Assembly (NCBI GenBank): GCA_052034135.1
Contig: JBPOJC010000013.1
Span: 62,538-126,537, forward strand
DNA: 64,000 nucleotides
Direction of reading: 5' to 3'
Source: Caldisericota bacterium
GTDB taxonomy: Bacteria; Caldisericota; Caldisericia; UBA6126; JAGPKI01
In this document: positions 48,246 to 62,667 of the stretch, piece after piece
How positions within the stretch are numbered: position 1 is the first letter of the stretch
Layout of the letters: every line of letters begins with the position of its first letter
Made by a program: the position numbers and the translations under genes
Notes under the pieces: generated by a model
What the model saw: the letters and a program-made list of their open reading frames with translations, nothing else
Database searches by the model: none
Told to the model about the DNA's origin: nothing

Positions 48246-50645
48246 TTAAGCTCCTATTCTCTCTGTAAATAATTCTTTTTCTGCAATCTCCCAGAGTCTC
48301 TCTCTTTTCTCTGTTGAAATGGGTTCTTCCTTTTTTAAAAACTTTGTAAGCTCAGTAATGTGTTTATAAAAGTCAGTTAATAGTGAAGCAAGTAATTCAG
48401 CAAATTTTAATCTTTCTGGAGATATACCTTCTTTATTAAGAATTTCTTTTACGAGAGAAACATTTGTTTTAATTTTATCAACAGATCCAGTATAAGGAGA
48501 CGCACGATCATCGCATTCACCTATAAAAATACCATCAGCACCAGACTTAAAAGCATATAAAATTAGCTTCGGCGTTATTCTACTTCCGCTTGGAACTCGT
48601 ATAATTCTTGTTTCAGCTGGATAAGAGAGTCTCGCAGTCCCTATGTTATCAGCAAGTCTATAGGTGCAGGTATTATCTGCAAAAACAAGGATTCTTATTT
48701 CACCTTCTTTTTTTGTTCTTAAAGCTTCATCTATTTGTTCCATTAATTGTTTATTAGTGTAGTATCGAAGGTCTAAAGCATCTTTTGGGCAATCCGCTAT
48801 ACACATACCGCAGCCCTTACATATAACTTCATTAATTTTAGCTTTTCCATTTTCAATCGAAATAGCTTTAAGTGGACAGCTATTTATGCATAACCCGCAT
48901 CCATCGCAAATATCATCATAAACAAAAGCGATAATTGGTTCTATTTCAAATACACTTTTATTCATAAGCCTCATTGCTCTTGAAGCAGAAGCACTCCCCT
49001 GAGCAACTGAATCAGGGATATCTTTAGGACCTTGAGCGCATCCTGCGATAAAAACACCATCGATAAGAGTGTCAACTGGTCTGAATTTAGGGTGAGCCTC
49101 TTGTAAGAAACCATCTGCACTTCTTGCAAGTTTAAGAATATCTGCAATTTTTTCACTTCCACTTGATGGAACAATGCCGGTTGACAAAACTACAAGGTCA
49201 AATTCTCCCTCTATCATCTTTCTACTTAAAGTATCTTCTGAAAGCAGATAAAGCTTTTTGGTTAAAGGGTCTTCTCGAATTTCTGCAACTCTACCACGAA
49301 TAAACTTTATTCCTTCGTTCTGAGCTCTCTTATAATACTCCTCAAAGCCTTTTCCATATGCACGTAAGTCTGTATAGAAAATATAAATGTCTCTTGATGG
49401 ATCAAGCCTTTTAAGTAATTGAGCAAGCTTTGTTGCATACATACAGCAAATTCTTGAGCAATTTTCTCTATCTATCTGCTCATCTCTTGAACCAACACAT
49501 TGTATAAAAGCAATTCTTTTCCCGATTGGCTTAAGTGGAGGACCGGAAGAACCAGTTGCAATAATCCTCTCAAGCTGAAGTGCAGTTAAAACATTGGAAT
49601 ATTTCCCAAAGCCATAAACCGGCTTTTTTTCAGGGTCAAATAATTCATAGCCTGTTGCTGTAATGATTGTATCAACATTAAAACTTATTAGTTCTTCTTT
49701 ATCATCAAAGTTTATTGCTCCCTGCGTACATAACTTTTCACATATACCGCAAATTTTGCCACCCTTGACAAGTCTTTTACAGTTTTTCTCATCAATTAAA
49801 TACTTTCTTGGTACTGCAACAGGATTTTGAACATATACTGCTTTTCTCAAAGATAGCCCTTCATTAAATTCATCTGGCACTTTAACAGGACATTTTTCAG
49901 CGCATATGCCGCAGGCAACACATTTGTCCATATCAATGTATCTTGGTTTCTTTCTGACGGTTACAGTAAAATTACCAAGATAACCTGTAATACTTTCTAT
50001 CTCGGAATAAGTCATGAGCTTTATATTGGGGTGCTCTGCACAATCAGCCAGTTTGGGACCTATGATACATGTAGCACAATCCTCTGTTGGGAATGTTTTT
50101 GATAGCTTTGCCATCTTTCCGCCAATTGCAGGTTCTTTCTCAACAAGGTAAACTTCAAAACCAGAATCACCTAAATCAAGGCTTGCTTGAACTCCAGTAA
50201 TTCCTCCGCCTATAACTAAAACTCGTTTCCCTATTGGTAATTTCTGCCTTTCAAGAGGAATATCCGATCTTACTTTAGCTATTGCCATATTAACAAGGTC
50301 TATTGCTTTGCTTGTAGCTGCGCCTTTACTGAAATGGCACCAGGAACATTGCTCTCTAATATTTGCCATTTCAAAGGTGTATGCATTTAATCCAGCTTTT
50401 TCAACTGTTTTCATAAATGTTTTTTCGTGAAAAAGAGGTGAACATGACGCAACAACTATATGATCAAGATTTTGCTCTTTAATATCATCAATAATGTATT
50501 TTTGACCCTCTTCTGAACACATGTGTTCGTTGTCTCTGACAAACACAACACCTTCTTTATCTTTTACACTTTCTGCAACTTTTTTAACATCAACAATATC
50601 AGAAATATTTCCGCCACAATGGCAGATATAAACGCCAATTCGCAT
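48246..50645 (-). CDS. hdrA: HdrA-like flavoprotein fused to a C-terminal MvhD-like domain (candidate electron-bifurcating subunit).
   Basis: The N-terminal Cys cluster is VYICHCGGNI and the FAD motif is VLVIGGGITGVQASLDLGDSGFEVYLVEKEP. There are several ferredoxin-type CxxCxxCxxxCP motifs. The C-terminal ~140 aa match MvhD (ILVFADNTC...GADGIFIGEC). It is 799 aa. Confidence 0.85.
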   Translation of the reverse strand: MRIGVYICHCGGNISDIVDVKKVAESVKDKEGVVFVRDNEHMCSEEGQKYIIDDIKEQNLDHIVVASCSPLFHEKTFMKTVEKAGLNAYTFEMANIREQCSWCHFSKGAATSKAIDLVNMAIAKVRSDIPLERQKLPIGKRVLVIGGGITGVQASLDLGDSGFEVYLVEKEPAIGGKMAKLSKTFPTEDCATCIIGPKLADCAEHPNIKLMTYSEIESITGYLGNFTVTVRKKPRYIDMDKCVACGICAEKCPVKVPDEFNEGLSLRKAVYVQNPVAVPRKYLIDEKNCKRLVKGGKICGICEKLCTQGAINFDDKEELISFNVDTIITATGYELFDPEKKPVYGFGKYSNVLTALQLERIIATGSSGPPLKPIGKRIAFIQCVGSRDEQIDRENCSRICCMYATKLAQLLKRLDPSRDIYIFYTDLRAYGKGFEEYYKRAQNEGIKFIRGRVAEIREDPLTKKLYLLSEDTLSRKMIEGEFDLVVLSTGIVPSSGSEKIADILKLARSADGFLQEAHPKFRPVDTLIDGVFIAGCAQGPKDIPDSVAQGSASASRAMRLMNKSVFEIEPIIAFVYDDICDGCGLCINSCPLKAISIENGKAKINEVICKGCGMCIADCPKDALDLRYYTNKQLMEQIDEALRTKKEGEIRILVFADNTCTYRLADNIGTARLSYPAETRIIRVPSGSRITPKLILYAFKSGADGIFIGECDDRASPYTGSVDKIKTNVSLVKEILNKEGISPERLKFAELLASLLTDFYKHITELTKFLKKEEPISTEKRERLWEIAEKELFTERIGA

Positions 50646-52511: not shown

Positions 52512-52823
52512 TATTTACCCCCTATTTAAAACAAAATTCCTAAATATTATAAATAGCAAATTTTATCAAATGTTCAATAAAGCAATTCAAACAAAGTATA
52601 GAAATTCAGTATATAAATAGTTTTTGATCTACATTTTGATTATTAATTGTTTATTGATTTATTTATATTTTCAACTTTAGAAGAAAGGTAAAGTATTTTT
52701 TTAACTAATTTTTAATAATAATTTATCTTTTTCCCCAATTAGAATTTGTACTTTGAAATTTTTGATTAGAGAAAGGAAAATTTTTCTTTAAAAAATCTTT
52801 TAAAATTTTTCATTTTTTACTTG

Positions 52824-52837: not shown

Positions 52838-53018
52838 GATTTACACTACTTCTCGGTAGCTTTTCTTAAATTAGGGATGGAGACTCCGATGAGGAGATTA
52901 AATTATATTACAATCAATAATGAAAACAAAGGAGATGGTGATTCCTATGGGCTAATTTTCTTTTAAAAATTTCATATAAAGCTTGTTTAAAGGTACTCAA
53001 AGAAAGGAGGAGATAAAA

Positions 53019-53789
53019 GTGAGCAATTTTTTCAAATTTAAGATGCCGAAAAGAAAAAGAAGTAATTTAATAATATTAAGTGGTAGAAAAAGTTTAGAGG
53101 CAGTTTGTTGTGGTAAATTCTGCAATCCTGTTGTTTCTATTTTATCATTGCCTGAAGAACATCCAGAAAAATGGGTTGTCATTGATATTGCTAATAAGTT
53201 AAATGATGCAAGAGTAGAATTATGTGAAACTGCAAAAAATGGAAATAGTGTTTGGAAGGCAACAACTGAAGCAGAAGTAAATCAAGCTGCAGCTCAAGTC
53301 AACAGTCATCTAACTAATTTTATTAACAATTTAAATGATGCAAATTCACTTATTAATAATTGGCATCAAGTTGCAGAAGCTAATAATTTGTTCAACACAA
53401 ATGATACAAATTTAAATGCTGCTGATTTAAATGAAGTAAAACAAAGTATGATAGATAATAATTTACCTATGGATCTTTTAAGTGGTTGCTGGGACAAAAC
53501 TGTTCAAATCTTAAATGAAGGAAATGGTACAGAAGTATTTCTTAACTTAGAACAAAATCTAATAAGTACCATTCACACACTTGCAAGTAATTTACAACAG
53601 CAATTTAATATTTTGATTGAGACTGAAATAAAATTTAGGCGTGATCAAATTACTCTCACAGATGTATGGAATACAAGATTTGGTATTATGAAAAGTTTTG
53701 ATTCCATATGGGCAAATCTTTCAGCATTTGATGGCTTTATGAAAGTTACTGAAGAGATGCAACGTATAGCAGCAGGATATGGAGGATGA
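53019..53789 (+). CDS. Hypothetical Asn/Gln-rich protein with an N-terminal CCGKFCNP Cys motif, ending in ...AAGYGG. It is a possible substrate/precursor of the downstream enzymes.
   Basis: The RBS AAAGGAGG is at 53004..53010 with an in-frame GTG at 53019. Alternative in-frame starts are ATG 52983 or ATG 53043. No family is recognised. Confidence 0.5.
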   Translation: MSNFFKFKMPKRKRSNLIILSGRKSLEAVCCGKFCNPVVSILSLPEEHPEKWVVIDIANKLNDARVELCETAKNGNSVWKATTEAEVNQAAAQVNSHLTNFINNLNDANSLINNWHQVAEANNLFNTNDTNLNAADLNEVKQSMIDNNLPMDLLSGCWDKTVQILNEGNGTEVFLNLEQNLISTIHTLASNLQQQFNILIETEIKFRRDQITLTDVWNTRFGIMKSFDSIWANLSAFDGFMKVTEEMQRIAAGYGG

Positions 53790-53855
53790 TAGCTAAATAT
53801 ATGAAAGGGAGGGTTTCTTATTATTTCTGTTTATAAGAATAGAAAGAAACTTTAA

Positions 53856-54554
53856 ATGCAGAGTAAAACTTCTCATTTTTATTTCTTTTATAATAAAGAC
53901 ACGTTAGCAGCCACTGAAATTAATATAATAGAGAAGAAAGAAGAAGAAGCTTTTGAATCCGTAAGTAACTTTCTGGCTATAGGATTCAACAAAAAGATTA
54001 GATTTAATCTTTTTTCATCTCCGATAGAAATTCTAAGAAGAACTGGGTTTCTATCTAATGGAATTGCTTACCCGGTAAGAAGAACAATTTATGCTGTTTA
54101 TTCAATAAAAGTTAAAGCTTTAGGAAAACATGAAATCACCCACATCTTAGCTTATAAAATCGGAAACCCTCCCTTGTTTTTACAAGAAGGTATTGCTGTG
54201 AGTTTAGACAAAAACTGGTTGAACAAGCCTTTATTTTCATATTTCGACAAAACTTTATGGACATATAAAAAACTAAGAATTGAACAGATATTTAAAGAAT
54301 TTAATTCTTTATTCCTAAATCCAAATAGAATAAAAGAGACTTCTAAAGATTTACTTTATCCTGTCTCTGGGTTATTTGTAGAATTCCTTATAAATGAGTT
54401 CGGAATTGAAAAGTTTAAGGATTTGTATCGCATTCTTTCTTTTAATGCTACTGCTGATGACTTTAAAGAAAATATTTGTAAAGTATATAATACCGATTTA
54501 AATGAAATAGAATTGAACTGGCTTGAAAACATGTCGCGAAGCAATGTTATTTGA
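53856..54554 (+). CDS. Putative zinc-dependent peptidase-like protein with an HEXXH motif.
   Basis: HEITH is followed ~20 aa later by FLQEG, which is a gluzincin-like HEXXH...E arrangement. It is 232 aa, and no specific family is assigned. Confidence 0.4.
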   Translation: MQSKTSHFYFFYNKDTLAATEINIIEKKEEEAFESVSNFLAIGFNKKIRFNLFSSPIEILRRTGFLSNGIAYPVRRTIYAVYSIKVKALGKHEITHILAYKIGNPPLFLQEGIAVSLDKNWLNKPLFSYFDKTLWTYKKLRIEQIFKEFNSLFLNPNRIKETSKDLLYPVSGLFVEFLINEFGIEKFKDLYRILSFNATADDFKENICKVYNTDLNEIELNWLENMSRSNVI

Positions 54555-54605
54555 TACTTAAGAAATTAACTATAGAAGGTAACTATAGAAGGTGGCAGTA
54601 ATAGG

Positions 54606-55844
54606 ATGGAAAAATTGTCTTCATTAAATAAACTTCTCAAAGTGGCAAAGAAAACAGATTTTTATAGATATTTGATTAATGAAATTCCTTCTTGTGATAA
54701 CAGCACAGAAATACTTGAAACCTTAGGTTTCTATACCACTAAAAGTGATTACAATTTGCATCTAAAACAGAGATTTGCTGATAATAATTTACAGTGGTTA
54801 GCAGTATCGACAGGCGGAACTACTGATATTCCGTCTATTGCTTTCATAACCGAAAAAGAAATAAAAATGGCAGCAGAATCCTTTGAAAATCTTTATTACA
54901 CTATTTTTAAAAAAAGCTTTAGGAAGAAAAAGGTTCTTTTAACAATTTCTTCTAACATAACTTTTCAATTAATTTCTACACTTTTAAAACTAAATGCAAA
55001 TGTTGCTTACTTGCCGCTTGAATTTGCTATTAATAATTATGCTCTTGTATTAAGCATAATAAATTTGCTTGGAATAGAAATATGGATTACATTGCCAATT
55101 CTTCCGTTTGAAATTGCTAAACAAATAGATCATTCCGAATACCAAAGAATGGATAGTATTTTATTATTAGCTGATTTAACGACTAATCGAATTAGAAATT
55201 TAATTAAAGAAAAATTTAGATGTGATATTGTAGCACAAGTATATGGAAGTGCAGAGCACTGCCTTATCGCAATGTCAGATGACAATGGTATATTCCACCC
55301 CTCAGATAACTCTATTTTAGAATTTTTAAAATTAGGTAAAAATATTGATTATTATGAATTAATACTAACAAATTTAACGAATTATAGTACTCCAATTATT
55401 AGATATAAAACTTCTGATGTTGTTAGAAGGATGCACGCCTTTAACGATGACCTTTTTTATACTTTTGAGATAGAGGGTAGGCTTGAAGAATGTTTCATTT
55501 CCTCTGATAACATAATCACACCACATCATATTTTATCCGTTGTTGATAGACTATTAACAAGTTTTTCGGTGATTTCATTAGTTATTGAAGGTAACATTGA
55601 TGAAATACAAGTCAAAGTAATTGTAAACACTAATAGTAGTAATATTAATTTTGATAGTCTCCATAAAAGATGTACAAGTTTATTCAAGAAAATTTTCGGT
55701 GAATATTCTAATGTTTTAGTAGATTTAGTTCCTACTAACTCGAGTAAAGGTAAAGAGGTTTTAAAAAGATTTAAACCACGCTATCTCTGGATAAAGCCAA
55801 AGAACATTAATAGATTTTGCATTAAACCTCCTGATGAAATTTAA
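54606..55844 (+). CDS. PaaK-like adenylate-forming enzyme (phenylacetate-CoA ligase / CapK / CoF390-synthetase family).
   Basis: It is colinear with the PaaK motifs. STGGTTDIPS matches SSGTTGKPT, YGSAE matches YGLSE, and ELILTNLTNYSTPIIRYKTSDV matches ELVFTSLTKEAMPVIRYRTRDL. An RBS AAGGTGG lies upstream. Confidence 0.75.
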   Translation: MEKLSSLNKLLKVAKKTDFYRYLINEIPSCDNSTEILETLGFYTTKSDYNLHLKQRFADNNLQWLAVSTGGTTDIPSIAFITEKEIKMAAESFENLYYTIFKKSFRKKKVLLTISSNITFQLISTLLKLNANVAYLPLEFAINNYALVLSIINLLGIEIWITLPILPFEIAKQIDHSEYQRMDSILLLADLTTNRIRNLIKEKFRCDIVAQVYGSAEHCLIAMSDDNGIFHPSDNSILEFLKLGKNIDYYELILTNLTNYSTPIIRYKTSDVVRRMHAFNDDLFYTFEIEGRLEECFISSDNIITPHHILSVVDRLLTSFSVISLVIEGNIDEIQVKVIVNTNSSNINFDSLHKRCTSLFKKIFGEYSNVLVDLVPTNSSKGKEVLKRFKPRYLWIKPKNINRFCIKPPDEI

Positions 55845-55853
55845 AGAAAAAAT

Positions 55854-56654
55854 ATGAAAGTAGGAATAATCCAAGGACCTTTTAAGCTTTCTTCAGCAAG
55901 AGAAAATTGGTGTACATTTGAAAATAATGTAGATTCTTTAGTACAACAAAAAGTCAATATGATTTGTATATGTGAAGAATTTTTGGGTAAACTCTCTTTT
56001 GTTATGGAGAAATGCTTAAAATTAGCGAAAACTTATAACATCTTTATAACTCCAGGCGTTTTAATTGAAAATTCTAAAGATTCGCTAAAGCCATATATCA
56101 TTTCAATTGTTATTGATCCAGAAGGCAGAATTTTAGTTAAACATAGAAAAGTATTTATGCCTCCACAAGATTCAGAATATTTCAATGCTGGGAATAGTTT
56201 TGATGACTGTATATTTGATTTTTTAGGAATAAGAAGTGCGATCTTAATTTGCGGAGACATAATTTCACCAATAGCACTTAGATATTTAAAGCAGAGATAC
56301 AACATTGAATTAGTAATACTTCTATTACGATTACCAGAAGATGAAAATTTTTTCATTCCACTCGTTAAAATACGTGCTGCTGAAAACAATGTGGCTATTC
56401 TTATAGTGAATGTATATGAAAAGAGTTTTCATGTCAAAATTGCTAGCCGATTGATCCTTCCAATAGAAAATGATATAGAAATATGTGAAAAAGATGGAAT
56501 AGGAACAATTTCAATTGATGTTGTTTCATTATCAGAAAGTTTACAATTAACTAAAGAAAATTTTCTTAGAAGTAAACAAAATTCTATAATAAAAGATATG
56601 ATATATAATGCTTTTGAGAATGAAAAACGTCTATTTAGCATTGTAAAAAAATGA
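55854..56654 (+). CDS. Nitrilase-superfamily carbon-nitrogen hydrolase.
   Basis: It has the C-N hydrolase E-K-C architecture. A Glu is near the N-terminus (CEEF), the RK..L box is KHRKVFMP, and the catalytic Cys context is AILICGD. Confidence 0.65.
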   Translation: MKVGIIQGPFKLSSARENWCTFENNVDSLVQQKVNMICICEEFLGKLSFVMEKCLKLAKTYNIFITPGVLIENSKDSLKPYIISIVIDPEGRILVKHRKVFMPPQDSEYFNAGNSFDDCIFDFLGIRSAILICGDIISPIALRYLKQRYNIELVILLLRLPEDENFFIPLVKIRAAENNVAILIVNVYEKSFHVKIASRLILPIENDIEICEKDGIGTISIDVVSLSESLQLTKENFLRSKQNSIIKDMIYNAFENEKRLFSIVKK

Positions 56655-57982
56655 ATTACGTTCTTTCTATGTATTCAATAATCAGCAAATTAGGTCTCAA
56701 AGACTCAATTGCAGTTTATAATGTATTTACTAAAGCACTTATCTTAGGGGGTAACATTTATAAAAGGGTTTTAAAACAGAATAACTTCATAAATACCCTG
56801 AAATACCCATTTTTAAAAGTAGAAGAAATAAAAAAATTGAATAATTTGGGAGTTATAGTTGACTCAAGTTTAGATGAAAAAAAGGTTACAAAAGAAAAAA
56901 TTCTAGAAGTCATTAAAGATTCAAGTAAGATTAACCTAACTTTGCTTTTAACACTTGACTGTAATATGGATTGTTCATATTGTTATGAAAAAGAAAATCG
57001 TAACAAAGCTTATATGGACTTATCAACTTGTAATAAAATTTTACAATACTTTGTTTATTTGCTTGATTACTCATCGTCTAAGAAAATATCAGTTACAATT
57101 TACGGAGGAGAGCCTCTGTTAAACATAGATGCAATAAAATATTTATTACCAAGAATAAAGCAATCTGCTATAAAGAAAAAAATAATTCTCAATGTAGATC
57201 TTATAACTAATGGAATCTTATTATCTTTAAATCTTCTTAATCAACTTAAACAATATGGATTGAATAGTGTGCAAATTACTTTAGATGGATGCGAAGAAGT
57301 CAACGACTCACGACGATATTTTAAGAACGGTAAAGGAACATTTAATAAAATATTTTCGAATCTTATAGAAACTGCAGACTGTTTACCTACAACACTTAGA
57401 ATTAATCTTGACAGTAATAATGTTGATAAGATTACGCGATTTTTAGACATTTTAAGGAAATTTGAACTTCACAGAAAAATAATTCTTCGTCCTGCATTTG
57501 TTTTTTCGCCCAAATATTCATGTAATAATCTTATAGAAAATACAAATAACTTGCTATTCTTTTGGAAGAAAGCATCAGAAAGAAATTTTATCATTCCTTT
57601 TGATCTATTTTCCCTACTTCCTGTTTGCTCAATCTACAAAAATTATGACTTAGTAATAGGACCCTTAGGAGAGATTTACAAATGTATTGGGTTTGCTGGT
57701 AATAAGAAGTTTATTATTGGTCATATAGATGAATTTAAACATCAAGTAGAAAATTATCCATTTAAACCTCAAAGTTTGATAATAAGAGATAAGTGTGTAA
57801 GCTGTAAGTATTGGCCATTGTGTCTGTCAGGATGTAGAATGTTAGCTTACATAAAATTTGGTTCTTTAGAATCTATCTATTGTCAAAAGGAATTTTTTGA
57901 TGCAATTTTTGAACATCTATTACCACTTTATATCTCTCAAAATTATGATGTAAATTTACAGAATTTTGCTTCTTCGAGCTAA
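56651..57982 (+). CDS. Radical SAM maturase with a C-terminal SPASM domain and a ~100-aa N-terminal extension that may be an RRE-like substrate-binding domain.
   Basis: A CX3CX2C motif (CNMDCSYC) follows a ~100-aa leader. GGEPLL is present, and the C-terminal SPASM motif is CVSCKYWPLCLSGC. It overlaps the hydrolase stop (ATGA). Confidence 0.8.
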   Translation: MNYVLSMYSIISKLGLKDSIAVYNVFTKALILGGNIYKRVLKQNNFINTLKYPFLKVEEIKKLNNLGVIVDSSLDEKKVTKEKILEVIKDSSKINLTLLLTLDCNMDCSYCYEKENRNKAYMDLSTCNKILQYFVYLLDYSSSKKISVTIYGGEPLLNIDAIKYLLPRIKQSAIKKKIILNVDLITNGILLSLNLLNQLKQYGLNSVQITLDGCEEVNDSRRYFKNGKGTFNKIFSNLIETADCLPTTLRINLDSNNVDKITRFLDILRKFELHRKIILRPAFVFSPKYSCNNLIENTNNLLFFWKKASERNFIIPFDLFSLLPVCSIYKNYDLVIGPLGEIYKCIGFAGNKKFIIGHIDEFKHQVENYPFKPQSLIIRDKCVSCKYWPLCLSGCRMLAYIKFGSLESIYCQKEFFDAIFEHLLPLYISQNYDVNLQNFASSS

Positions 57983-58011
57983 GAAGAAATAAATAAAAAT
58001 ATAAGGAGGAT

Positions 58012-58764
58012 GTGATGAATATGGAAGTATTGAATTTTTGGAATATTTTGCTTTTGATGGTTGCTTTTGGAATAGTTTTATGGGTATTAGCTAATTGGTT
58101 TAAGAAATGGGCTAATGTAGAAATAGGCAAGGAACCTAAAACAGGTGTGTATGAAATCTTTGATTGTTTAATCGCTGTTGGAGTTTGGTTTGCTGGAATG
58201 AAGTTATTACCAAAATTTGTAAAAAATTATGATATATTTACTCTTTTGTATCTTTTAATGACAGTTGTTATTATTGCAATTTTTACATTAGCAAGAAGAA
58301 GAAATTTCTCAGACATTGGTTTATCCAAAAAAAATATTAGAAAAATGTTAATCTTTACTATAATTATGTTTGGAGTAACTTTTGCTTATAATCTTTGTGC
58401 ATTGTATTTTAAAATTAGCCCTTATCCTATAAAAATAGAAATTATGTCATTAAAAACTGCATTAATTATTATTGGAATGGGCATTATTAATCCAGGGTTG
58501 ATTGAAGAACTCCTTTTTAGAGGTTTTGTTTTATCAAAGTTAGAGAGATTCTTGAACTGGAAATGGGCATTATTAATTTCTGCAGTTCTTTTTGGAATTA
58601 TTCATGTTGGACAGGGAATCTTTCCTATTATGGGCAGCATCTATTTAGGACTACTATTTGGTTATGTTTTCCATTGTGTTAGAAACATTATACCATTGGT
58701 AATTGGGCATGGTGTAGGGCTAACAACTGCTATTGTCGTTGCTAATTTGTTGAGAATTTTATAA
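58012..58764 (+). CDS. CPBP-family intramembrane metalloprotease (CAAX protease / Abi, bacteriocin-immunity-like).
   Basis: It has multiple TM segments. Motif 1 is EELLFRGF, motif 2 is FGIIH, and motif 3 is HCVRN (HxxxN). Confidence 0.8.
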   Translation: MMNMEVLNFWNILLLMVAFGIVLWVLANWFKKWANVEIGKEPKTGVYEIFDCLIAVGVWFAGMKLLPKFVKNYDIFTLLYLLMTVVIIAIFTLARRRNFSDIGLSKKNIRKMLIFTIIMFGVTFAYNLCALYFKISPYPIKIEIMSLKTALIIIGMGIINPGLIEELLFRGFVLSKLERFLNWKWALLISAVLFGIIHVGQGIFPIMGSIYLGLLFGYVFHCVRNIIPLVIGHGVGLTTAIVVANLLRIL

Positions 58765-58990
58765 AGTTTGAGGAAATAGGGTTTAATTTTTGTTTTTGGA
58801 ATTGGTATTTATCTTTCTCTGCTTTACTTTTATTCGAAAAGTATCTGGTCACCTTTTATATCTCATCTAATCATTAATTGTGTGAGCGGTTCGTGGGGTA
58901 AATCATTCCATCCAGAAAGACAGCGTTAGACTACGCGAATTATTTGCAGATTAAATGTTCTCCCATAAGGAAACAAGCATAATCATAATT

Positions 58991-59773
58991 TTAATAGTGT
59001 CCTAATAAACCTCTATCTTTGGCAATTTTCTCACAAAGCTTAAAAATATAAAAACCTAAGAAGAAGTAAAAAAGTGCTGTAATTATAAGGATAAAAATAT
59101 CATTAAAAGGCATATTAAAGATTGAGATTCCTTTGGTCATATTATCCCTGATTAGTTTTGTACCTAAAGAAAGTGGTAGAAATTTAAAAGCAAATATTTT
59201 ATCAACTGGTGCAGCAATAAAGCCAACAAATATGAATTGAAGTATTTGAAAGAGAGACTGGATTCTTTTGTAAATAAGCCCTAATCCGCCCATAATAAAT
59301 CCTATGCCATAAGCACCTGCAAGCGAAAGAACAAGAAGAGGAACAATTGTCAAAAGATCAAGGTGTAAAAATTTACCTGTTGTAATCATCATAAGGAAGA
59401 GAAATGGAACAGTCCAAAAAATATTCAGTATTAAATCTGATATAACAATAAATATAGAAATAGTACCAAAGCCGAATGGAGACATATAAAGCTGTTCTAA
59501 AGTACCAGTCTGTGCTTCTTCCATTAATCCCCATGATAATGTGCTATATCCACTTATTGCGTAAGTCCAAACAAAGAATCCTACAATAATACCCTCAATA
59601 GTATTTGAAAAAGTTGCAGATTGACTACCAATCATATACTTCGACCCAAAAAATATTGCTAAAAAGATTAAATAAATAGTTATTATTGAAGAGAAAAAAT
59701 TTAAAGGATATCTTAAAATTAGTTTAAGTCTTTTTATAAAAATCGTACTAAAAAGATTCCATTGATTTTTCAT
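58991..59773 (-). CDS. ABC-2 type transporter permease.
   Basis: It has six predicted TM helices and is 260 aa. Its start overlaps the ATPase gene stop. Confidence 0.7.
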   Translation of the reverse strand: MKNQWNLFSTIFIKRLKLILRYPLNFFSSIITIYLIFLAIFFGSKYMIGSQSATFSNTIEGIIVGFFVWTYAISGYSTLSWGLMEEAQTGTLEQLYMSPFGFGTISIFIVISDLILNIFWTVPFLFLMMITTGKFLHLDLLTIVPLLVLSLAGAYGIGFIMGGLGLIYKRIQSLFQILQFIFVGFIAAPVDKIFAFKFLPLSLGTKLIRDNMTKGISIFNMPFNDIFILIITALFYFFLGFYIFKLCEKIAKDRGLLGHY

Positions 59774-60705
59774 TTTTGCACAAGTTTTAAATATATATCT
59801 TCAAAGTCAGGTTCAATCCTCGTAATGCTTAGAAGTTTCACATTATTGTCCTTAAGAGTTTCAAGTAATTTATAAATAATCATAAAATCTTTCAATTCAA
59901 TAATTATTTCAGTTTTTGAACTGTTTTCTGTATATTTTGTTCCTAGTGAGATTTTTTGAAACTCTTCTTTTACCTTGTTGTCAATTCTACCGTCTATTTC
60001 AAACTTATAAGCATTCACTTTAAAAAAATCTTTAAGTGAATCTAACTTTTCATCTGCCACTATTTTTCCTTTATTAATTACTATTACCCTTTCGCAAACA
60101 TTTTCTATAACTCTCATATTGTGTGAACTGAGGAGAATGGTCCTTCCTTTATTTACCATTTCATTTTTTAAAAGGTTTTGAACTTCATGTGTTGATTCTA
60201 CATCAAGTCCGAGAGTTGGTTCATCGAGAAGAATTATTTCAGTATCTTTTATTAACGCTGATGCAATGGCAAGCTTTTGCTGCATACCTCGAGAGAGGAA
60301 GCGAGCTTCAGTGTTTGTCTTTTCTTTTAGTCCAAAAATATTGATTAGCTCATCTATTCTCTTTTTACAATTCTTATACGAGTAACCCATAAGACCTGCA
60401 AAGAATATAAGGTTTTCCTTTACTGTAAGTCTCCAGTAAATATTGCGATTACCCTCCAGAACACTTGAGATTTTTTTAAATGCAAAATATGGATTTTTTG
60501 TTACATTTATTCCGTCTATCCAAATTTTTCCTGATGATGAATTAATTAAACAACACAATGATTTAATTGTAGTCGTTTTCCCGGCACCATTTGGTCCTAA
60601 AAGACCTACAATTTCAGCATCATTAATACTAAATGAAATCTCATCTATTGCTCGAACTTCAGTTTTACCCTTGTAAATTTTAGTTAAATTCTCACATCTA
60701 ATCAT
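59770..60705 (-). CDS. ABC transporter ATP-binding protein (ABC-2 / lantibiotic-immunity-type ATPase).
   Basis: Walker A is GPNGAGKTT, the signature is LSRGMQQKL, and Walker B is ILLDEPT. Confidence 0.85.
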   Translation of the reverse strand: MIRCENLTKIYKGKTEVRAIDEISFSINDAEIVGLLGPNGAGKTTTIKSLCCLINSSSGKIWIDGINVTKNPYFAFKKISSVLEGNRNIYWRLTVKENLIFFAGLMGYSYKNCKKRIDELINIFGLKEKTNTEARFLSRGMQQKLAIASALIKDTEIILLDEPTLGLDVESTHEVQNLLKNEMVNKGRTILLSSHNMRVIENVCERVIVINKGKIVADEKLDSLKDFFKVNAYKFEIDGRIDNKVKEEFQKISLGTKYTENSSKTEIIIELKDFMIIYKLLETLKDNNVKLLSITRIEPDFEDIYLKLVQK

Positions 60706-60883
60706 GTTTATTGATTTCCCAAAATATTATAACATATTTACATTTAAAAAATTAATTAATTCTTTTATGGTGCTTAATTGATTAAATTCAAAAATTAGAT
60801 ATTCAAATAAGCAATCTATAAAGAAATACAGAAATATTGACAAAACCAATCAAAATATAGATAATTGCAGTGAAATATTACAG

Positions 60884-60957
60884 GCGCCTGTAGCTCAGTT
60901 GGATAGAGCATCTGCCTTCTAAGCAGGTGGCCGTGGGTTCGAGTCCCGCCAGGCGCA
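60884..60957 (+). tRNA. tRNA-Arg (anticodon TCT).
   Basis: It folds into a cloverleaf by hand: acceptor GCGCCTG/CAGGCGC, D arm GCTC..GAGC, anticodon stem TCTGC/GCAGG with loop CTTCTAA, and T arm GTGGG-TTCGAGT-CCCGC. It is 74 nt. Confidence 0.85.
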
Positions 60958-61359: not shown

Positions 61360-62370
61360 TTAATCAGTAGCTCCAAAACTTAACTTCAATTTTAAATTAT
61401 ATTCTTTATTTTTAATTTTCCTACTTTCTTTTGCTTTTAATATTTTATCCTCTCTTTCTTTTAATATTTCCTCTGGATTACCTCTATAGTAATCAACAGG
61501 TCTTAAGTAGTTAATACTTGAATGAAGCCTCTCATTGTTATAGTAGTCTACATATTTTGCAATTATTTGTTCTGCGTCAGTGAATGTAGCAGGATAATCT
61601 TTTCTTAAAGCTTCCTGCCTTAATAAACCATTCCACCTTTCTAATTTACCATTAGTTTCCGGGTGGTTTCTTCTTGTTCTAATGTCAATTAGGTAAGCCA
61701 ACGATATTACTTCTCTGAATTCTTTTGAGATAAATTGAGAGCCATTATCATGTATTATCTTTGGAGATATTTCTCTGTTTTTATCAAGGATTTCTTGAAT
61801 GAATAAACTTACGCTCTTTGAACTAATATCTGGTAATAACTTCCATCCTACTATATACCTCGAATAACCATCAAGGACAGCAATAAGAAATCCCCATATT
61901 TCACTCACTTTTATATACATTATGTCCGTATGCCAATGTTCGTTTACTTTAGTTGGTTTTTCTTTGTATTCCTTTTCTGCTCTTCCTTTGATGTTGCCCC
62001 ATCTATTAAGAAGATTATATTTTGTTAAGATTCCGTAAACTTGTTGGGGAGTTAAATAGACGATATCTTCATCTATCATCTGGTAAGTTAATTTCTTATA
62101 GCCAATTCCTGGATTTAATTTTGCATATCTTACTACAATATCTTCCTCTTCTTTTAATACCTTTATTAGGGTTTAACAAAAGGAATCTTAGGGGTTTCTT
62201 TTCCTTTTAACCATCTATAATAGGTAGCTCTGCCTTATTACAAAGCTTTTCTAATATCCACTCCAACTTAAAGCCAGTAAGTTCTTTCATTCTTTTAACT
62301 TCTTCTTTTATTATTTCTTTAAGTTCTTTATCCTTAACATTGTGTCCTATAATTCCCCAAGATTTTTTTT
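61360..62370 (-). pseudogene. IS3-family transposase OrfB (rve/DDE integrase core). The N-terminal part appears frameshifted.
   Basis: The intact ORF 61360..62079 carries the DDE core (WHTDIMYI..., HDNGSQF, NGKLERWN). Between ~62185 and ~62225 all three frames contain stops. The -1 frame out of the A9 site ends at ...PIIDG*, while the conserved OrfB N-terminal box (RYAKLNPGIGYKKLTYQM) is in another frame. Joining them would need two indels. Confidence 0.5.
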
Positions 62371-62667
62371 TAAAATAAGGTTCTCTTCTGCCAGAGTTGC
62401 AATTACATTCTTCATTCTATCAATTTCAGCTTCTTTTAACTTTTCTTTTCTACTTCTCTTATTAATACCATTCTTAAATGATTCATAAGCTCCTTCCAAG
62501 AATTTCTTCTGCCAGGTATAGTATTGCCTTGTATCAATATTATACTTTTTACATACTTCTGATACAGGTACTTTACCAACTAATACCTCTTTTACAATTT
62601 CAAACTTCTTCTCAGGACTAAAATGCCTCCTGTTAGATCCATTAACATTTTTTGGTTCTACAACCAT
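62347..62667 (-). CDS. IS3-family transposase OrfA (HTH plus leucine zipper).
   Basis: It is 106 aa. The HTH is VSEVCKKYNIDTRQYYTW, and L-x6 heptads occur near the C-terminus. An RBS AAGGAGGA lies upstream. Confidence 0.8.
   Translation of the reverse strand: MVVEPKNVNGSNRRHFSPEKKFEIVKEVLVGKVPVSEVCKKYNIDTRQYYTWQKKFLEGAYESFKNGINKRSRKEKLKEAEIDRMKNVIATLAEENLILKKNLGEL

Follow-up and report, generated by a model that had tools for sequence, protein, structure and literature searches.

In the 64,000-nucleotide stretch of a Caldisericota bacterium analysed here (contig JBPOJC010000013.1, positions 62,538 to 126,537; hereafter the window), the gene at 53019–53789 encodes a 256-aa protein that we consider, with moderate confidence, to be the precursor or substrate of a pathway of the RiPP type (peptides made by the ribosome and modified after translation), related to the 'geopeptide' and CefB-type radical S-adenosylmethionine (SAM) systems. 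A substrate role is the best reading because several features point the same way: a Cys-Cys (CC) motif and its position, the place of the gene at the head of an operon, the presence in that operon of a Cys-directed maturase bearing a RiPP recognition element (RRE), and an HExxH partner shared with clusters of the maturase's relatives. By analogy with those relatives, the stretch CCGKFCNP near the N-terminus is probably the target of the radical SAM/SPASM enzyme. An earlier note on this DNA had taken the protein for a modified substrate and not an enzyme, and had named the same Cys motif as the target of a SPASM radical SAM enzyme; the comparative context of the maturase relatives supports both proposals. 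What it further proposed for the C-terminal Gly-Gly of the protein finds no support beyond the Gly-Gly itself and is taken up with the alternative readings.

The gene and its product

The frame runs on the forward strand from GTG 53019 to TGA 53787–53789, with TAG directly after TGA, and it is a real gene and not a chance open frame: by our estimate, the chance of an open frame this long at 31.8% GC is about 1e-9. GTG 53019 is the best start because it is preceded, 8 nt upstream, by AGGAGG (Table 1), and nothing comparable stands before the alternatives ATG 53043 and TTG 52983; public gene calls are divided over all three (256, 248 and 268 aa). The gene was described in the earlier note as the first of its cluster, and it does indeed head an operon, with a strong Shine-Dalgarno sequence and five same-strand genes downstream that are separated by short gaps and include one 4-nt overlap. 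A hairpin 3' of the gene, considered as an attenuator of the kind associated with precursors (-11.8 kcal/mol, z-score -1.1), is not significant, and no terminator is predicted. Recoding of the stop codon was rejected, as TAG follows straight after TGA and other window genes end in TGA at normal lengths. Also rejected, by inspection, was a lipoprotein or signal-peptide N-terminus, there being neither a lipobox (LEAV-C) nor a hydrophobic core region.

The Cys residues of the protein lie at positions 30, 31, 35, 69 and 157, the first three of them in the CCGKFCNP motif that the earlier note had picked out. The C-terminus reads ...RIAAGYGG, as that note had also reported, and its Tyr is the only one in the protein. 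The body had been called low-complexity and rich in Asn, Gln and Leu, which holds for the first two residues, both enriched about twofold relative to the 41 other window genes (Asn 12.9% vs 5.9%, Gln 4.3% vs 1.9%), but not for Leu (9.8% vs 9.6%), and the body is neither low-complexity nor disordered in prediction. In an AlphaFold2 single-sequence model (predicted local distance difference test (pLDDT) 62.6, predicted template modelling score 0.59), which contains helices only and no beta-grasp, residues 1–48 are poorly ordered apart from one short helix over LEAVCCGKF, and residues 49–253 are modelled, at moderate confidence, as a bundle of four long helices. The body as modelled is thus probably a folded helical domain, neither a low-complexity tail nor a beta-grasp. 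A Foldseek search with the model returned nothing significant.

The protein is a complete orphan. Scans of Pfam and NCBIfam gave no domain match, in agreement with the earlier note, which had seen no recognisable domain. A k-mer search of 5.8 billion proteins matched only the protein itself, HMMER, run in full against 1.84 billion cluster representatives, yielded the protein and one compositional match at 1.5e-4, and a tblastn search of plasmids found nothing. The 'cluster members' of the protein all share one sequence and differ only in the start from which it was called.

The maturase and the precursors of its relatives

The fourth gene downstream encodes the radical SAM/SPASM maturase, whose best family matches (CefB, the geopeptide maturase, TIGR04463 and PapB) are all Cys-acting. 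In an alignment of 18 maturase sequences the CxxxCxxC motif (C104, C108, C111) is invariant, as are seven SPASM cysteines (C326, C345, C382, C385, C391, C395 and C411). The AlphaFold2 model of the enzyme (pLDDT 83.7) begins with a beta-sheet followed by helices over residues 1–90, which resembles an RRE, and among its full-length matches in the PDB the thioether synthase CteB ranks first (E 1e-20, TM score ~0.7), followed by TigE and anSME. It is this RRE, together with the likeness to CteB and the placement of CC in the precursors described next, that supports the Cys motif of the 256-aa protein as the site of modification.

We compared 160 loci from metagenomes and genomes that carry the closest maturase relatives (23–34% identity) and added several by exact look-up; 165 related loci entered the cluster-gene tests. 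In a large share of them an ORF of 27–46 aa lies directly upstream of the maturase gene. These precursors follow a pattern in which a hydrophobic stretch with L-(D/E/K)-x-G at its end is followed, typically after 10–11 residues (range 6–14), by CC and then by 3–14 more residues; CC is invariant in all 36 curated precursors, about 17–36 residues from the start, and some of them match the NCBIfam model TIGR04229 'geopeptide' below its threshold. The 256-aa protein reads LIILSG-RKSLEAV-CC-GKFC from residue 17 on, and its CC stands as far from the start as in geopeptide-type precursors. A CC within residues 15–40 is found in 1.6% of long ORFs, and the expression [ILVM]{3}.{1,3}G.{7,14}CC matches 21 of the 36 curated precursors and the window protein but none of 2668 background ORF N-termini.

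Among the four highest-ranked maturase homologues, the second (L004), third (L178) and fourth (L179) are accompanied by precursors reading RVLEKG-x14-CC, EILKQG-x13-CCGSR-stop (a short precursor) and ILEKG-x9-CC, respectively. The first-ranked homologue (L002) belongs to a cluster whose first gene encodes 129–133 aa, with EILEEQG-x7-CRC and then about 100 further residues; it is followed by a gene whose product is homologous (BLASTP 1e-7) to the HExxH protein of the window, and by two radical SAM genes. At L178 another homologue of the HExxH protein comes directly after the maturase gene (Smith-Waterman score 63 against 31±5 for shuffled sequences, none of 2000 shuffles reaching 63). The HExxH protein therefore recurs beside two of the three best maturase homologues.

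Some geopeptide-like precursors (at L013, L020, L021, L095 and L102) have long Lys/Ala/Thr-rich repeats (KKKATKKK...) before CC, and N-terminal extension therefore occurs in precursors of this kind. Only two cases of C-terminal extension were seen, the window protein and L002.

Strength of the resemblance and a possible route

Taken together, the resemblance of the CC pattern is suggestive at the level of sequence, and we do not claim homology of the leader. Several points weigh against a substrate role. The regular expression given above was written post hoc, after the sequence had been seen. A hidden Markov model built from the 36 precursors gives the window N-terminus 1–2 bits, from CC only, and tests with a position-specific scoring matrix of the leader, both ungapped and gapped, return P ~0.2–0.3 for the window protein; the same tests return P ~0.03–0.15 for the L002 first gene, depending on the test. 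NCBIfam models, TIGR04229 included, give no match to window-protein residues 1–60 even at E up to 10. Typical precursors carry CC 3–14 residues from the C-terminus and geopeptide precursors are about 30–45 aa long, whereas the window protein is 256 aa long and continues for 225 residues after CC; an architecture of CC followed by a long tail is unique among the 165 loci save for the weaker case at L002, and a screen of the related loci for any further precursor with an N-terminal CC and a long tail found none beyond it. The maturase falls far under the cut-offs of both families that it matches best (220 bits vs 600 for CefB, 209 vs 400 for the geopeptide maturase TIGR04280). Since the protein has no homologue, conservation offers no test. 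Finally, as far as the searched literature shows, the chemistry of geopeptide and CefB systems is unpublished: we found no paper that mentions geopeptides or DVU1553, or that treats RiPPs, radical SAM and nitrilase together.

If the protein is nevertheless the substrate, its flexible N-terminal ~48 residues would comprise a leader (the LIILSG strand) and a core (CC-GKF-C). The N-terminal RRE of the maturase would bind that leader, and the enzyme would cross-link Cys30, Cys31 and/or Cys35, probably through thioethers to nearby carbon atoms. The MA-type HExxH peptidase may then cleave or otherwise process the product, the CPBP protease and the ABC-2 transporter may provide export and/or self-protection, and the PaaK-like enzyme and the CN-hydrolase may act as extra tailoring enzymes. 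The ~205-residue four-helix bundle that comes after the Cys motif might serve as a carrier or follower domain; alternatively, it might itself be the functional protein. There is precedent for RiPP enzymes that modify proteins larger than 30 kDa (PMC13056109).

The other genes of the operon

Table 1. Features of the cluster and its surroundings, in window coordinates.
Feature	Position	Strand	Basis or comment
Shine-Dalgarno sequence AGGAGG	53005–53010	+	8 nt before GTG 53019, read directly
Orphan-protein gene, putative precursor or substrate, 256 aa	53019–53789, including stop	+	Read from the sequence; homologue searches
LIILSG, residues 17–22, candidate leader/RRE-binding strand	53067–53084	+	Resembles the hhhL-x-x-G of geopeptide-type leaders
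CCGKFCNP, residues 30–37, probable radical SAM/SPASM target	53106–53129	+	CC invariant in curated precursors of relatives
Predicted up-down four-helix bundle, residues 49–253, Asn/Gln-enriched	53163–53777	+	AlphaFold2
C-terminal GYGG, residues 253–256, then TGA TAG	53775–53786	+	Read from the sequence
HExxH...EGxA protein, MA-clan metallopeptidase-like, 232 aa	53856–54554	+	Pfam Peptidase_MA_2 3.2e-5, below gathering score
PaaK-like adenylate-forming enzyme of the ANL superfamily, 412 aa, strongly diverged	54606–55844	+	NCBIfam DVU_1553 family 4.4e-12; PaaK 2e-6
CN-hydrolase (nitrilase superfamily), 266 aa	55854–56654	+	Pfam 1.7e-7, above gathering score
Radical SAM/SPASM RiPP maturase, 443 aa, N-terminal RRE-like domain	56651–57982	+	CefB 4e-65; geopeptide maturase 8.5e-62
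CPBP (Rce1-like) intramembrane protease, 250 aa	58012–58764	+	Pfam Rce1-like 1.1e-16
ABC-2-type transporter, convergent	58991–60705	-	ABC_tran 4.8e-30; DrrA subfamily 9e-69
ABC-2 transporter permease gene	58991–59773	-	
ABC-2 transporter ATPase gene	59770–60705	-	
tRNA-Arg(TCT)	60884–60957	+	Immediately after the ABC transporter of the cluster
IS3-family element, after the tRNA	within 61360–62667	-	orfB 61360–62079; orfA 62347–62667

The gene next to that of the 256-aa protein encodes the HExxH protein, which carries HEITH...LQEGIA and scores 24.3 bits against Peptidase_MA_2, where the gathering score is 32.4. Neither hmmscan of this protein reported a family of the alphaKG-HExxH type, and whether the libraries include such a model was not checked. 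An adenylating enzyme and a nitrilase-type hydrolase follow as the second and third genes downstream, exactly where the earlier note had placed them. The first of the two, which is PaaK-like, aligns with PaaK structures in the PDB at E 0.02–0.06, and no close homologue of it was found. The CN-hydrolase matches the formamidase AmiF at 1e-5, in an alignment that pairs the catalytic Lys and Cys (K99, C133), and has its nearest counterparts among soluble enzymes of the formamidase and omega-amidase types rather than in Lnt. The genes for these two enzymes are 9 nt apart, and that of the CN-hydrolase overlaps the radical SAM gene by 4 nt. The CPBP protein, which is probably an immunity or processing component, matches the CPBP half of NF041647, a family of ABC-permease/CPBP fusions, at 9.5e-16.

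Family profile scans found no ThiF match in any protein of the cluster, and the PADLOC models of defence systems gave nothing relevant. The intergenic regions of the cluster were scanned as well and hold no other Cys-containing ORF that could be a candidate precursor. Across the 165 related loci there was no PaaK-like enzyme, no CN-hydrolase, no homologue of the 256-aa protein and no precursor ending in GG.

Alternative readings

The 256-aa protein might not be a substrate at all but an accessory, immunity, regulatory or structural helical bundle, in which case the true precursor would be an unannotated small ORF or would lie elsewhere in the genome. We regard this as unlikely, although such a size and a folded domain are not typical of the precursors that go with this maturase clade, and the similarity of the protein's leader is not significant. 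RiPP precursors encoded in trans are known, and close at hand there is a candidate, a small ORF of 25–29 codons (52877/52889–52966, MRRLNYITINNENKGDGDSYGLIFF), whose second ATG is preceded by GGAG at 6 nt and which lies in the 507-bp region upstream of the gene. This ORF, however, lacks Cys, and the precursors used by all close relatives contain CC. It is overlapped by one public gene call only, a 52-aa fragment in the same frame that runs off the start of the L169 contig and ends at window 52966, and by none in L001; moreover, several contigs with the complete cluster begin within it, at window 52901. The 256-aa protein, by comparison, is the product of the first gene of the operon and has CC at the right position, and at L002, too, the first gene encodes a long product whose Cys motif stands in the same place. 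As an observation in its own right, the small ORF (52877–52966, forward strand, METPMRRLNYITINNENKGDGDSYGLIFF) lies within an AT-rich stretch, the 507-bp upstream region having 21.9% GC.

A second possibility concerns the two enzymes that are found in no related locus. The PaaK-like enzyme might make an acyl or aryl adenylate from a small acid, and the nitrilase-fold enzyme, with its Cys nucleophile, might transfer an amide-linked group to the N-terminal module of the 256-aa protein or trim it there. Relatives in the PaaK family act on small aryl or acyl acids, the nitrilase superfamily includes the N-acyltransferase Lnt and the protein-amide hydrolase Nta1 besides amidases, and the two genes are neighbours in the closely packed stretch that leads into the radical SAM gene. 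We nevertheless hold this reading doubtful and rate its weakness as similar to that of Gly-Gly activation: a comparable gene pair occurs in none of the 165 related loci, and the CN-hydrolase, as noted above, is closest to enzyme types other than Lnt.

Gly-Gly activation was part of what the earlier note proposed, namely that the PaaK-like enzyme adenylates the C-terminal carboxylate with ubiquitin-like logic and that the activated terminus is amidated or ligated with ammonia from the nitrilase-type enzyme, in addition to cross-linking at Cys. The protein does end in GG, which by composition would be expected in only about 0.3–0.5% of proteins, and an adenylating enzyme shares the operon with a CN-hydrolase whose Lys and Cys are intact. 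Adenylation is paired with a nitrilase-type glutaminase in glutamine-dependent NAD synthetase, of which one structure (5kha) is a weak match of the CN-hydrolase. A GG terminus, however, is by itself a weak signal, given the number of features that a reader could have chosen. The predicted four-helix bundle is moreover not the beta-grasp of GG-activated carriers: ubiquitin-like and ThiS/MoaD proteins share with the window protein a C-terminal Gly-Gly and an ATP-dependent adenylating partner, but they are beta-grasp proteins of about 70–100 residues, and the window protein is 256 aa long and predicted to be all-alpha. Their partners are of the E1/ThiF type, whereas the window enzyme is of the ANL/PaaK type, and no JAMM, E2 or sulfurtransferase partner accompanies it. 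PaaK itself activates a small aryl acid, and the nearest annotated relative of the window enzyme is a Streptomyces AMP-binding protein encoded beside anthranilate-synthase genes (24% identity, E 5e-9).

Adenylation and amidation of a C-terminal carboxylate do occur in RiPPs (PMC13060819), and the logic proposed for the window, adenylation followed by attack of ammonia, is that of the asparagine-synthetase-like enzymes TsrC, ScdTA and PesC, which are used for C-terminal amidation or nitrile formation and take their ammonia from glutamine (PMC13060819). No such PF00733-type enzyme is present in the window cluster, however, and the source of ammonia would have to be the separate CN-hydrolase. The enzymes known to adenylate the C-terminus of a peptide or protein are of the E1/ThiF and asparagine-synthetase-like families (PMC13060819; PMC12250964), and the window enzyme is neither. 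Nor can co-variation be demonstrated, as a GG terminus and the two enzymes are all absent from the analogous clusters at L002 and L178. We therefore consider the full proposal very unlikely. Less likely still is a bundle protein of ~29 kDa modified at both ends, by the radical SAM enzyme on CC-x3-C and by a PaaK-type enzyme with its nitrilase-fold partner on the GG carboxylate, although this, if true, would be the first activation of a protein C-terminus by the ANL family and would amount to ubiquitin-like logic built from unrelated parts.

Relation to known systems

The cluster, in which we continue to favour a substrate role for the 256-aa protein, stands closest to the geopeptide (TIGR04229/TIGR04280) and CefA/CefB 'Cys-every-fifth' systems. 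CefB and the geopeptide maturase are the best family matches of the window maturase, LIILSG-x7-CC resembles the hhhLxxG-spacer-CC of the relatives, and the gene is the first of its operon. As to differences, a predicted four-helix bundle is contained in the 225 residues after CC, the window protein is not matched by the TIGR04229 model, the maturase lies below both family cut-offs, and genes for a PaaK-like enzyme, a CN-hydrolase and a CPBP protease are present in addition.

With the SCIFF/ranthipeptide and sactipeptide systems (CteB, PapB) the cluster shares an enzyme composed of RRE, radical SAM core and SPASM domain and a substrate motif that contains Cys. Their substrates, however, are short and have Cys-rich cores at the C-terminus, whereas the window cluster has only three clustered Cys, close to the N-terminal end of a large protein. 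A substrate of protein size is found in the QhpC/QhpD pair, where the radical SAM/SPASM enzyme QhpD makes Cys thioether cross-links in the gamma subunit of quinohemoprotein amine dehydrogenase, and TIGR03906 matches the window maturase at 4e-27. In that pathway the leader is cleaved, and there is an ABC exporter dedicated to it. The window cluster differs in that it has no dehydrogenase subunits, its substrate is unrelated in sequence and its Cys motif takes up only a single short segment. MNIO/ChrH-related systems and DAG-RiPPs (PMC13056109) again have a RiPP-type enzyme that acts on a terminal motif of a protein of about 30 kDa, but MNIO enzymes are not radical SAM enzymes, the modifications are C-terminal and the substrates carry lipoprotein signal peptides.

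Three further relatives of the maturase (L166, L167 and L168) are clustered with a SAM synthetase, Cys-rich peptides of 62–93 aa, an ABC exporter and S41 peptidases. The peptides at L166 and L167 share ...CP(E/S/K)HCW(A/S)QVC... and, for the most part, ...KVDPF...; these clusters apparently represent a different and undescribed RiPP family.

Distribution and genomic setting

The cluster is nearly identical in at least 10 metagenome contigs of digester type and is apparently confined to one lineage. Population variation was too slight for a ratio of non-synonymous to synonymous substitution rates, the contigs being nearly identical across the cluster (3 mismatches in 4 kb). Among loci L169–L177, several independent metagenome contigs that carry the cluster begin at window 52901; one contig of 8019 bp corresponds exactly to window 52901–60919 and ends inside the tRNA, and in a low-coverage contig (L173) the sequence to the left of window 52777 is unrelated. 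The contig ends at 52901 and 60919, together with the L173 junction, suggest that the cluster is a compact 8-kb unit, strain-variable or island-like, beside a tRNA. A 13-nt direct repeat (TGTTTATTGATTT, window 52648–52660 and 60705–60717) brackets the cluster, with about 0.03 matches expected by chance between the flanks; the repeat (TGTTTATTGATTT) does not coincide with the L173 junction.

Farther upstream, the 3' part of a gene on the reverse strand for a 799-aa HdrA-like protein (49821–50394) holds 61 of the 64 mismatches that distinguish the window from L001 over 7.2 kb. Of the mismatches in this 600-bp patch 51 are synonymous and 10 non-synonymous, and the rest of the 7.2 kb is nearly identical, which suggests either a patch of recombination or a chimeric assembly.

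Significance

RiPP clusters of the radical SAM/SPASM kind are already known, and geopeptide/CefB-type systems are widespread in anaerobes, dozens of loci having been found here. New relative to the related loci are the oversized orphan protein, a probable precursor, and the two putative tailoring enzymes: what is unusual is a CC module fused to a large folded domain, in company with PaaK-like and nitrilase-fold enzymes that occur in no related locus. The weakness of the case is that the cluster belongs to essentially one lineage, so that conservation teaches nothing, and activation of the Gly-Gly terminus, the most striking claim made for it, is the least supported. If the assignment of the 256-aa protein is right, the cluster would offer a tractable test case for the chemistry of these maturases on Cys-Cys and would illustrate how a full-size protein can undergo RiPP-type modification.

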